A stretch of DNA of 64,000 bases from Octopus vulgaris. Taxonomy: Eukaryota. Each line of letters starts with the position of its first letter. Positions within the stretch are counted from its first letter, which is position 1. Location of the stretch: NCBI GenBank assembly GCA_951406725.2, contig OX597816.1, positions 30,070,001 through 30,134,000 on the forward strand, given 5' to 3'. The position numbers and the translations under genes were made by a program. Of the stretch, positions 16,498-52,657 are shown piece by piece. The notes under the pieces were generated by a model. The model did not search any database. It worked only from the letters and a program-made list of their open reading frames with translations, and was not told the DNA's origin.

Positions 16498-16947
16498 GGA
16501 TCTTTTCGGTTTGAACAGCAGTTTTTAACATAATTTCTAGGTAACTAAAAAATTTTAAACTTCGTATACTGGTAGAATGTGTTTATAAAACATTTTTTTC
16601 TCTTGGCTTTATTAAGAAAATTCTATAGTTTGTAAGATATTTGTTGTCTTTTTCTTCAATTTCTGCAATTTCAACCAATCAAATACGTCTATTGAGGTAA
16701 AAAAAAACATTCTGTGCCGTATGAATATGTCCCTCGTTTAAGAAACAGATAGGGTTTATTTACATTTGTGAAGTAAAAAAGATACCCTTCCCCCACTCCT
16801 AGCCCTAACTCTAACCCTAACTAACGCTAACTAACCCTAACCCTAAAATAGATTGAAATGCAATAGATCGATACTAGGGTCATAATTATGGGTGACAATT
16901 TCATATGACACCGCTAGAAAAAACTGCCGTTCAAACCGAAAAGATCC
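16498..16947. mobile_element. MITE with ~29-bp TIR (GGATCTTTTCGGTTTGAAC..), 8-bp TSD, internal CCCTAA repeats; Merlin-like
   Basis: TSD GCGGAAAA at 16490-16497 and 16948-16955; GG termini. Confidence 0.85.
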
Positions 16948-28251: not shown

Positions 28252-28287
<36 letters not shown>

Positions 28288-28345
28288 TCTTGCAAACAAC
28301 TTGCACATGCAAGTGCTACCAATTAAAAGCTCCGTATATCGGAAG

Positions 28346-28457
28346 CTAGCAAGTGTATGGGGTCATCAGGAGAGAATGCGCGCCGTTTCGGGGCCTACCT
28401 CTCAACGGCATCAATGCGCACCGGCCCCCCTCACTGATATGAGGCCCCGCTTGCTAG
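28346..28457 (-). ncRNA. Hammerhead core with permuted, pseudoknotted connectivity in ~225-bp insert (28287-28510) within (TAA)n
   Basis: GCCGU-U-GAGAG, GGCCCC-GAAA-CGGC, CUCUC-CUGAUGA and GGGGCC all present with perfect stems. Confidence 0.6.
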
Positions 28458-28522
28458 ATCAGCTGGTTATGAAGAACTCAATATACTTCTAGCCATCGCT
28501 CATCGTCTCTTAATAATAATAA

Positions 28523-28825
28523 CTAGCAGTATCGCCCGGCGTTGCTCGGGTTTGTAAGAGAAATAACTATATAAGCATTTTTAGAGAGTTACTTCTCTTA
28601 TATAATAGCAAAAAAATGCATTAAAAATGGGAAAAAATGATGGTAAATTTTTTTTTAAATCGTAGGCTCATCGTAAACGCGCGTTAATACCCAGAAGGGC
28701 TCGATATGAATCACGACTATAAGATACCCGGTTTTGGTTAAACTGCACCGCAAAATGTGGGAGTAGTTAGGAATCTAAATCGTAGGAGACAGACACTCAC
28801 ACAACTTCACTTTTATATATAAAGA
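28523..28825 (-). mobile_element. Non-autonomous Helitron, shorter copy
   Basis: Same TC..hairpin-CTAG ends and AT target as 4492-4883. Confidence 0.8.
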
Positions 28826-30826
28826 TATCTAGTCTTTCTCATTCGCAAAATGAGCTCCCCTTAATTTCGCTCAGATTACTTTCAATTTTAGTGCATCGAT
28901 GCAACTCTGAATTTTGATTACGATCAACCAATTACTTTTATCTCGTAAATTAAAGAATCTGATGTTATTTGGAATTAAAGTTGGGAAATTTGGGGAATTT
29001 TAGCCAATCTACAGACAGCGGTGTATTAACAGCTTGTTACTATGACAACCGCACGCTGTGTTGTGGTTCACTGTTATCTGTGCCGTTGTTGTTCTATATT
29101 GATTTTTCACACTTGATGCTTCACACCACGAGATTCTTGTCATCCGTGTGTTTTGTTTTAATTTATCTGTGTTAGTATATTACATATTTTTCTGTGCTTT
29201 TTCTGTGTGTTAGTATTTTTCTGTGCTTTTTCTGTGTGTTAGTATTTTTCTGTGCTGTGCTTTTTCTGTGTGTTAGTATTTTTACATATTTTTCATTTCA
29301 TATATTTTTGGGACTCATTGACTCAGATAGCTGGATTTATGATTTTACTAGATTAATTCTATTCATAAAAGTTTAAATTAGGGGTATTTCTTAAACCGCC
29401 AGCTTCACATTTCAACAGCTTATAGATATAGATATTACTATGGGTGATATACAGGCATTACTTTTGAATTCTGCATGCAAAAACATATAAGATACAGTCC
29501 TCTAATATATAGTCCTATAACATATAAGATATATTATTATTCTTATCGTAGTTTACAAATCCAGGCATGAAAACGTTTCTCAGCTTTGGACACACACATA
29601 CACATATGCACTTATATATTAATGATGTACATAAATACAGAATAAACACATGCAGACAAATATATTAATATAAAAAAAAAATTTTTAATGGTAAAAACAT
29701 ACAATCAATGATGAGACAAAAGAAACAGTAAGATGATACATGTTGATTTTATTAGGTATTTCTGTTTATTTCGAAACCTACAATGAACAGGTCAGATGCT
29801 AAACTATAAATTTCACAGTGTACAACTTTAAAGTTGACACCGCTCCGCAGAGAATTTCTGTTTCGGAAGTGGCTAAAAATACCCATTTTTTTAATTATTT
29901 TTAAACCTCAGTAACATTTTTCTCTATTTTTTTTTCCCACAACATCATACATTCAAAGCAATGAGACTGGAAGGCTACATTATTATAGCCGATTTTCAGA
30001 TTTTTTTAACTTCCTTTTAAAAATGCATATTTTACGAATGAAAATAACTAGATCATAATAAATAATAATAATAATAATAATAATAATAATTAAATAGTTA
30101 AATTATCGAAACTGCATGTATATGCATAAATTGTGAAAAAGTTCACATTCGTACGTTTGTTAAACACACACTGAGCCTTGCTGTGCTTCGAGACCAAGTT
30201 GTAAGTCTCCCTTTGCGCTACATCTCTCTCTCTTTCTCTCTCACACACACACACGCGCGCGCGCGCGGTCTCCACATCTATGCTAATGGGAAATTAATCA
30301 AACATTAACTTAGGGAATTTCACACATGCATGGACACACAGGCAATCAAACAGACGTACACATGTATGCTGGTATGTGTGTGTGTGTGTGTGTGTGTGTA
30401 TGAATGTGTGCGTGTTGACATTCAGGAATAAATAATATGCCGTTTGATAAATTTCACATTAGCATATTTTTCTTTTAATTTATAGAAGTTCGTTATATTC
30501 ATGCCCATTCCAGCATCCAACCATTTGATGTTAAAATTTCTTTGATAATAAATAGGTTTCTCATTGGATGTTAGTTAATACCTAATTACATAGATTCAAA
30601 TATGATTTTGATACAATGTAATTTGTTTTTCATCTAATTTCTATAAACCCCAAAAATATGCAACACTTTTTATGAGCTGAAAGGTTTCCTATTGCATGAT
30701 TTCAAATCAGTCAGCACACACAAAAAAAAAAAAACAAAAATAAAATAGCGTTTTCCAAAAACATGTCTGACTATTTTAAAGGTAAATTGAGCCCCCTTAT
30801 GCTATTATACAACAAAATAAACGTAA

Positions 30827-49960: not shown

Positions 49961-50524
49961 GGTATAGGACGTCACCATAGGGGCAAACAGCATGATATAC
50001 GTAAACTAACGAGGCAAAAATGAGTGAAATACGTAAACAAGAAAAAAAATGGAAGACAGGACAAGAAAACACAGAGAAAGGCCCCTTCATCAGTTGTTGG
50101 CTGTCTATCTACCCCCTCATTTCGAGCATTCAACGACAATATGAGTTTCAATAACAGTTGCTCCCATAAATTCTAAAATAAAATATAGGGTTTGTGGAGG
50201 GCCCAAGTTAGTAACAAAAAAAACAAAACAAAAAAAAATGACAGTGGAGACAGACAAGGAAACCGAACGAAAACAAACATGGAGGGTCGTAGACCAGGAC
50301 AAAAGGAAAACAGTGAACGCTAGGAGAAACATTTTTTTGAAAAGAGAGAAAATATAGAAGACTTTAAAGATTCTTATTGTCGCTGAATGCTCGAAATGAG
50401 GGGCTAGATAGATACCCTACAACTGATGAAGAGTCCTTTCTCTGTGTTTACTTGACCTGTTATCCATTTTTCGTGTTGTTTAAGTATTTCATGTTATTTA
50501 CACTGTTGGTGACGTCCAGTACCC
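49961..50524. repeat. Diverged inverted repeat (arms ~49961-50143 and ~50373-50524)
   Basis: ggacgtcacca/tggtgacgtcc; cctcatttcgagcattca/tgaatgctcgaaatgagg. Confidence 0.7.
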
Positions 50525-52585: not shown

Positions 52586-52657
52586 TCCTCAGTAGTATAG
52601 TGGTAAGTATCCCCGCCTGTCACGCGGGAGACCGGGGTTCGATTTCCCGCCGGGGAG
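52586..52657 (+). tRNA. tRNA-Asp (GTC), possibly impaired copy
   Basis: TCCTCAGTAGTATAGTGGTAAGTATCCCCGCCTGTCACGCGGGAGACCGGGGTTCGATTTCCCGCCGGGGAG; cloverleaf; T5 run ~12 nt downstream. Confidence 0.85.

Follow-up and report, generated by a model that had tools for sequence, protein, structure and literature searches.

The window, the whole 64-kb stretch of Octopus vulgaris DNA analysed here, carries on its minus strand a predicted hammerhead ribozyme with an unusual strand order. The motif belongs to the 3' UTR of a young Hero-like non-LTR retrotransposon encoding a reverse transcriptase (RT) and a restriction-like endonuclease (Table 1). The initial annotation had read the minus strand of 28346-28457 as a complete set of core nucleotides, each beside perfect stems I, II and III; we found all of these stems in place and confirmed this reading. 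The genomic context was absent from that first reading, namely the 3' UTR of an RT/endonuclease retrotransposon that has longer-than-unit insertions.

Table 1. Features of the retrotransposon copy and the predicted ribozyme in the window
Feature	Position	Strand	Basis or remark
3' end of non-LTR retrotransposon, 5'-truncated, ~227 bp	28285..28511	-	98-99% identity to 39 other scored genomic loci; fixed 3', variable 5' ends
Final ORF codons and stop	28478..28511	-	Identical sequence closes the 1175-codon frame of L033:5505-9029
Outer helix, 5' strand, extends helix X past a bulge	28450..28457	-	Pair probability 0.99
Outer helix, 3' strand	28346..28353	-	Pairs with 28450..28457 on folding
Helix X, 5' strand, GGGG	28445..28448	-	Partner is the strand directly behind A9; covariation in relatives
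Hairpin Y, directly abutting helix X and G10.1	28429..28444	-	Conserved, covarying
Stem II, 5' strand, GGGGCC	28423..28428	-	G10.1 = 28428; pairs with GGCCCC, 28395-28390; G10.1-C11.1 in 22/23 non-redundant elements
P4, 5' strand, joins free sides of stems II and I	28416..28422	-	7 bp, probability 0.91
Stem III, 5' strand, and NUH site	28404..28409	-	GCCGU (28409-28405) pairs with ACGGC (28386-28382); predicted cut 28404/28403; GUU in window copy, GUC in most copies
Stem I, 5' strand, GAGAG; 5' end of predicted cleavage product	28399..28403	-	Pairs with CUCUC, 28374-28370; core conservation and covariation
Stem II 3' strand, GAAA core, stem III 3' strand	28382..28395	-	GAAA = 28389-28386, in 23/23 non-redundant elements
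P4, 3' strand	28375..28381	-	Pairs with 28416..28422
Stem I 3' strand and CUGAUGA core	28363..28374	-	CUGAUGA = 28369-28363; CUGANGA in 21/23 non-redundant elements
Helix X, 3' strand, CCCC, immediately 3' of A9	28359..28362	-	No gap in 36/37 parses, gaps penalised
Inferred reverse transcription start region, without poly(A)	28285..28293	-	~116-126 nt past the cut; 37 genomic 3' ends
(ATT)n microsatellite target	28252..28286		Repeat recurs at 28512-28523; target-site duplication not delimitable

Three details of the annotated structure were revised. One extra helix had been placed between A9 and stem II; helix X does enter there, and it is accompanied by hairpin Y, so that two conserved elements, one open helix and one hairpin, occupy this position. 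The proposed 5-bp linker pairing UGCGC/GCGCA exists as a longer helix, P4, of 7 bp (GGUGCGC/GCGCAUU, including two G-U pairs), which prolongs stem III past a 6-nt bulge. The GUU cleavage site holds for the window copy and is a minority state in the family: among the matches listed, 95 of 100 have GUC, 4 have GUU and 1 has GCC. From these counts we take the window copy's GUU to be CpG-type decay of the family GUC.

Nested folding returned pair probabilities of 0.89-1.0 for the outer helix, helix X, P4 and stem III, and of only 0.29 for hairpin Y. Stems I and II were absent from the nested fold because both cross other helices. The nested minimum-energy fold paired the stem I 3' strand and hairpin Y differently, and misfolding of the ribozyme RNA is possible on this model; the folding program cannot form pseudoknots. 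At 28452-28433 (minus strand), where GGGGCC occurs twice, the 5' side of X or Y can alternatively pair with the stem II 3' strand, and the same alternative was seen in L044, L048, L050, L053, L054 and L097. It could act as a switch to an off state, or could simply follow from G-richness. Between the ribozyme and the element 3' end there is apparently a second conserved structure (window 28345-28290; also L039, L040, L041, L088 and L095), a UCCG..CGGAGCU-like hairpin followed by AGCAC..GU(G/U)UUU, which is a candidate signal for the start of reverse transcription.

Searched with Rfam at gathering threshold, the 64-kb window gave no hammerhead match. This miss was expected for a pseudoknotted order. 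A strict descriptor of the knotted order, run on both strands of the window, gave one additional, weaker match near 50093. This match (~50087-50163, minus strand) has an AUA site and a score of 26 vs 34, and the extra helices are absent by eye; it is probably a chance match.

Exact sequence patterns counted 648 and 838 copies of the ribozyme, that is, at least 838 in the 2.8-Gb genome of the animal. A search of this genome returned 2203 candidates, and the 40 that were scored are 98-100% identical. The 30 genomic loci examined share a common fixed 3' end and have variable 5' ends. Long copies contain an open frame of 1175 codons whose stop lies ~20 nt before the motif. The frame carries an RT (Pfam RVT_1, E 5.7e-19); behind it lie a CCHC knuckle (residue 954) and a PD..E endonuclease motif (residue 1063). 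With Pfam matches accepted to E 0.1, RVT_1 is the only domain found in the frame. This protein and 24 of 56 proteins longer than 1000 aa have an N-terminal zinc-finger-like motif. Short repeats in the 5' UTR (CAGUGAC, GGAAAGAC), seen at L033:5500-5600 and downstream of the ribozyme in L047, L049, L056, L060, L083, L088 and L117, are conserved across distant elements and are a candidate translation or promoter signal.

Among 85 protein relatives were many fish proteins, including Takifugu BAC82598.1 (36% identity, E 1e-52), which we take to be HEROFr. With 984 aa, BAC82598.1 fell below the length filter of the zinc-finger count and stands outside it. In a quick tree of the C-terminal region, midpoint-rooted without outgroups and of descriptive use only, it falls among ribozyme-bearing loci. 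In seven NCBI fish proteins, BAC82598.1 among them, the C-terminal tail matches the translated 5' half of the ribozyme of L044, L051, L054 and L104, and therefore the ribozyme motif is probably present in those fish as well, judging from the protein tails. No relative was found in viral contigs. None of the sequencing runs that carry the element is recorded as RNA; assembled contigs of four runs cover parts of the element and one of them spans a unit junction, with ends, strand and circles not readable from them, and these contigs are given no weight. Many of the closest protein relatives (P0001-P0031) lie on contigs of 3.6-4.0 kb, roughly the length of one unit, which is what assembly would produce by collapsing tandem or circular units.

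The domain order resembles that of R2 and Hero elements, which have a single ORF with RT, CCHC knuckle and restriction-like endonuclease (PMC3636483, PMC2790886, PMC6765202, in the parts consulted). HERO elements are described in the passages cited as non-site-specific members of the R2 group (PMC3636483, PMC2790886, PMC7650587, PMC5678591, PMC13580325), and the octopus element shares the lack of target specificity stated there (PMC3636483, PMC2790886): its flanks at 37 3' ends are varied AT-rich or microsatellite sequence. The Hero clade is stated in the relevant section of PMC2790886 to have no Cys-His motif upstream of the RT; the octopus element has the N-terminal zinc-finger-like motif there. 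In the sections of the Hero literature available to us, no ribozyme is described, and our literature searches turned up none for Hero elements.

We examined the conservation of the wiring in relatives from a scan of metagenome contigs, which yielded 80 loci, 51 of them reaching the protein C-terminus and 44 having at least 150 nt beyond it. The strict descriptor fitted 25 of the 45 regions that follow related ORFs, namely 24 out of 44 relatives and the octopus element itself, and was absent from all 45 reverse complements and from 900 dinucleotide shuffles. It also found nothing on the plus strand of the window, and a plus-strand hammerhead was discarded. Relaxing the descriptor added three loci, and it then also matched 5 of 900 shuffles. 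A mismatch-tolerant parser that includes X and Y parsed 36 of the 44 relatives and the octopus element (scores 54-74) and left 8 relatives unparsed; it parsed 8 of 900 shuffles, with a top score of 40, below the scores of all parsed relatives. The junctions are flush in 36 of the 37 parses, gaps being penalised by the parser. Stem III has 4-7 bp in the parsed loci, and with such a stem an obligate dimer, as in Penelope hammerheads, is possible but unnecessary.

In 23 sequences below 80% identity the core is largely invariant (CUGANGA in 21, GAAA in all 23, and G10.1-C11.1 in 22), two of these non-redundant elements having non-consensus cores. The cleavage sites of the 23 elements are GUC (12), GUA (5), GUU (4) and AUA (2), and the NUH rule is kept throughout, with no G at H in 23/23 under a parser that penalised G. 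The catalytic positions are maintained across elements whose proteins are ~30-50% identical. X and Y were also scored against 200 shuffles of the sequence upstream: in 19 of the 23 elements no more than one shuffle reached the element's own score, and in the remaining four 3-9 of 200 did so. A P4-equivalent helix of 4-11 bp connects the same segments in 28 of 28 parsed loci, a count that comes without a null.

Because the parses were fitted to the model, pair counts were repeated on alignments made from sequence only. A 24-row MAFFT alignment lost the register of stem II and of the site across subgroups, and for this reason two sub-alignments were used; their ends were trimmed with the same parser and the tested structure was specified by the analyst. 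A MAFFT alignment of 16 sequences from the 37 parsed loci gave 93.9% paired cells for X, Y and II, and both partners vary in 21 of the 23 base pairs; none of 500 shuffles matched this pairing, and slid partners reached at most 42%. For the six closest sequences, counted over the helices X, Y, I, II and III, 94.4% of cells are paired and both partners vary in 13 of 21 base pairs. This covariation upholds the annotated strand order II, III, I, II', III', I', with the chain open at the step from A9 to stem II. Considering the descriptor controls and the compensated pairs together, we regard the core-opened, knotted hammerhead motif as real and conserved. Within the octopus genome, several copies show a recurrent identical deletion of the stem II 5' strand via a short CAC direct repeat, and the G-run before this strand is often changed in length.

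The initial annotation suspected that this topology had not been described. In this respect it went too far for one part: the order site-GAAA-CUGAUGA is that of the published type SGC (PMC10085705), so the pseudoknotted, triply crossed core was already known. According to the portions of that paper cited here, Eckert et al. 2023 reported active non-circularly permuted hammerheads of type SGC (also CSG and GCS), with cleavage rates of 0.007-0.19 per min for type SGC, and assumed the blocks to be uninterruptible. The octopus ribozyme and type SGC share the order site-GAAA-CUGANGA, three mutually crossing stems, an I-II linker of ~3 nt and a helix that joins the other sides of stems I and II (same portions). 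They differ in the source of the stem II 5' strand, which in type SGC follows CUGANGA and in the octopus element comes from upstream, with helix X and hairpin Y entering between A9 and G10.1. Stem I, CUGANGA and stem II thus do not stand in a row as an intact block C. Hammerheads link A9 to stem II directly or by 1-2 nt; here, the strand behind CUGANGA instead pairs upstream to form helix X. Between this strand and the stem II 3' strand there are 0-2 bp in 31 of 37 parses, and 3-4 bp in the other 6, only with an offset of 1-2 nt. A standard type SGC, whose stem II would be formed by the strand after CUGANGA, is ruled out by the 31 parses.

What appears to be new is the opening of the chain between A9 and G10.1 with two entering helices, and the host, an animal genome. 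The (+) hammerhead of CChMVd tolerates an extra A between A9 and G10.1, so that activity can survive an insertion at this point of the backbone; there it is one nucleotide in a standard three-way junction vs two helices and free RNA ends here (PMC3705267, the parts dealing with this insertion). Perreault 2011 gives insertions at 2a/2b, 6a and 13a and, in the pages cited, no helices at 9/10.1 (PMC3088659). The core-opened variant is likewise absent from the portions of PMC13725137 and PMC10162972 available to us. In the papers searched, the core-opened wiring was not found described, and type SGC was traced only to Eckert.

We looked for traces of cleavage in the genomic copies. A coarse test found foreign sequence just upstream of the cut in 9 of 838 copies, compared to 5 and 12 at two control positions. 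The counts are like those of the controls, and there is therefore no gross pile-up at the cut. Several of the nine copies are ~120-bp copies that start at +1. In a fine test, the 100 copies with a deviation anywhere from +33 to -9 were all classified; the element resumes upstream in 63 and is truncated in 37. By eye, two of the truncated copies (L248, L254) are small deletions, and two scored as resuming (L259, L260) look truncated. Six of the 37 truncated copies (-5 to +33) end exactly at +1, a position predicted before the ends were counted, compared to 0.84 per position elsewhere (Poisson P 2.4e-4). Four further ends can be read as +1, or as -2 with CpG decay, giving a candidate +1 total of 6 to 10 of 35-37; the -2 reading is unlikely because CpG decay occurs in only 4 of 100 listed copies. 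No truncated end falls between +7 and +15. A smaller cluster of ends lies at +25 (four copies), so RT stalls or microhomology can create peaks too.

The pile-up at the cut is likely a footprint of cleavage in vivo. Its simplest reading is that the RT would run off the 5' end of cleaved RNA in ~1-2% of events and cross the site otherwise. We consider it very probable that the RNA is cleaved at the predicted site. The other possibility is that the motif is a non-catalytic, hammerhead-like scaffold that serves only as a binding site for the RT protein. The replacement of the A9-G10.1 backbone link of known hammerheads by two helices and the missing Rfam match would fit such a scaffold, which would leave unexplained why catalytic positions, the NUH rule and G10.1-C11.1 are retained across such protein divergence and why ends accumulate at the predicted scissile bond; we find it hard to credit.

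The long copies revealed how units are joined. Among 18 long loci examined, 13 have two cut sites, and these insertions are 1.0-1.5 units long with a ribozyme at both ends, so that tandem hammerheads bound a monomer as in retrozymes. The period between the two sites is 3732-3738 nt in 8 of the 13 and shorter, with internal deletions, in the other 5. The longest insertion measures 1855 + 3738 + 122 nt, the unit being 3.74 kb. Both repeats of one insertion share variants relative to the reference copy in 8 of the 13 (1-24 variants each, with the maximum of 24 in L161) and are identical to the reference in 5. Since the repeats share lineage variants, the upstream repeat appears to be remade from the same template as lineages diverge. 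The insertions cross the predicted cut unchanged: among the matches listed, the joint is free of indels in 99 of 100. Among the 26 relatives with over 300 nt of sequence past the ribozyme, 6 begin the family ORF again there; in L051, ribozymes occur twice at a distance of 3643, and the contig of L055 is circular. The tandem or circular layout of relatives is seen in assembled contigs and is weak evidence.

For the 5' ends we used the best 30 of 40 scored loci with 5' UTR, taken from 92 candidates, two of the 30 being a duplicated pair. In eighteen the first base lies before the cut, from -19 to beyond -1368; six others begin after the cut but ahead of the usual 3' end, and six further inside the element. 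None of these 30 5'-UTR-bearing copies starts within 18 nt of the cut. A fixed 5' end made by the ribozyme, as in R2, is thereby ruled out (0 of 30 long copies). The ribozyme as maker of the element 3' end is ruled out as well, with copies ending 116-126 nt past the cut. The 37 3' ends, one of which (L003) is an upstream repeat, have no poly(A), are ragged, and run 2-10 nt (mean 4.3) into the continuation of the tandem unit, a pattern that microhomology priming inside a longer RNA would give. Few copies have clear target-site duplications (one of 25 bp in L006, besides several microsatellite matches), and in most the search found none. At L037 (G000:C11:84624000-84633900), two inverted element copies have 3' flanks that are near-identical over ~900 bp.

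These patterns could arise if the ribozyme were slow or regulated and uncut transcripts of pre-existing tandem copies served as linear templates, as proposed for Penelope elements, with cleavage only freeing a 5' end for translation or limiting transposition. Some 98% of cDNAs do pass the site. Slow cleavage is in keeping with the published type-SGC rates, and self-cleavage can aid cap-independent translation according to the part of PMC13725137 cited. However, copying of uncut linear RNA should only shrink the overlaps and let the repeats diverge. In diverged lineages, by contrast, both repeats show the variants of their lineage (up to 24, in L161), and the upstream cut, where an R2-like 5' ribozyme would place 5' ends, is the start of none of the 30 long copies. 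We therefore believe that linear read-through is quite improbable.

The main rival is an exact template jump across a nick, in which the ends of the excised monomer would remain unjoined but be kept in place by stems I and III, with the RT jumping from the 5' end to the 3' end of the same or another monomer. Such a nicked circle likewise predicts longer-than-unit copies, shared repeat variants and stops at +1. Bibillo and Eickbush are said to have reported in 2002 that R2-type RTs copy across non-continuous templates, and such template jumping would suit this rival. Of the 10 candidate +1 ends, 9 have a T in front of them, as expected if the cDNA had received an untemplated A. Jumps usually leave extra or missing bases, and against this expectation stands the joint that is exact in all but one of the listed copies. 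We judge the nicked circle unlikely. The DNA patterns by themselves cannot tell a ligated circle from an exact template jump.

Our preferred reading, which we hold to be reasonably probable, is that the knotted hammerhead likely cleaves longer-than-unit transcripts to 3.74-kb monomers, which are likely ligated to circles and copied by the element's own RT in rolling-circle mode. Transcription would run across two ribozyme copies, and cleavage would occur at GUC, the remaining RNA entering the core via helix X at A9/G10.1. The ends would then be ligated by the ribozyme or by a host ligase. The endonuclease would nick an AT-rich target, whose DNA 3' end would prime via 2-10 nt of microhomology ~116-126 nt past the joint. 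Since this inferred start lies ~116 nt from the monomer 5' end, productive copying must cross the joint. The RT would pass it, circle round and drop off randomly, so that most insertions would be short 3' pieces such as the window copy, and an occasional cDNA of more than one unit would restore a template with two ribozymes. Unligated RNA would give dead copies of ~120 bp that stop at the cut. Taken as a whole, a circle with rolling-circle reverse transcription would account for all patterns, and we favour it to that same, reasonable degree.

The circle model itself comes from retrozymes and Penelope elements (PMC7761336, PMC6765202, in the parts consulted). Retrozymes are described there as non-coding, 150-1000 nt long, with type I or III hammerheads and a borrowed RT (PMC7761336); the octopus element is 3.74 kb long and has its own RT and endonuclease in the 1175-codon frame, and is thus neither non-coding nor non-autonomous. 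Penelope-like elements are closer in being autonomous, in their partial tandem layout with a hammerhead in the repeated end (pseudo-LTRs), and in that circles have been suggested for them; they differ in their minimal type I hammerheads, which need dimers (PMC6765202, same parts). In R2, an HDV-like ribozyme sets the 5' end of a linear template (PMC6765202, passage on R2), whereas in the octopus element the hammerhead lies behind the stop codon, priming would take place just downstream, and copies exceed one unit. No ribozyme-bearing retrotransposon with a circular RNA intermediate and tandem copies was found in our search of the literature since 2021. Penelope-like elements belong to another RT clade and carry a GIY-YIG endonuclease. 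The octopus element has neither this domain (RVT_1 being the only one found) nor the minimal type I order; it combines a full-stemmed, pseudoknotted hammerhead with a PD-(D/E)xK-type domain.

Some neighbouring sequences were recorded. Directly upstream of the element (28524-28827, minus strand) lies a non-autonomous repeat with a TC..TATATATAAAAG start near 28825, a CTAG end near 28524 and a GC-rich hairpin at 28550-28535, which we presume to be Helitron-like; similar sequence flanks L016/L031. The sole Rfam match in the window is a plus-strand tRNA gene at 52586-52657 (49 bits) with a GUC anticodon, Asp by reading. A short CTAACCCTAA repeat at 16811-16841 resembles telomeric TTAGGG.

Current hammerhead classification explicitly takes the CUGANGA-stem II block to be uninterruptible; the wiring found here contradicts this and places a non-circularly permuted hammerhead in animal genomes. 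With this block interrupted, Rfam and the six-permutation descriptors miss such ribozymes, of which one genome holds hundreds. For the biology of the element, the data suggest that an R2-related clade of protein-coding LINEs uses circular (or nick-bridged) RNA and rolling-circle reverse transcription, and not a 3'-primed linear template. On balance we lean towards the view that an autonomous branch of R2-group LINEs, reaching into fish genomes, transposes via a self-cleaved, covalently closed 3.7-kb circular RNA that would serve as mRNA and also as the template for rolling-circle copying. Its processing would fall to a seventh hammerhead wiring, with a five-way-junction core opened at A9/G10.1. 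If true, this would link retrozymes to an autonomous element and make the long-proposed model of ribozyme, circle and multimeric cDNA directly testable in a self-contained system.
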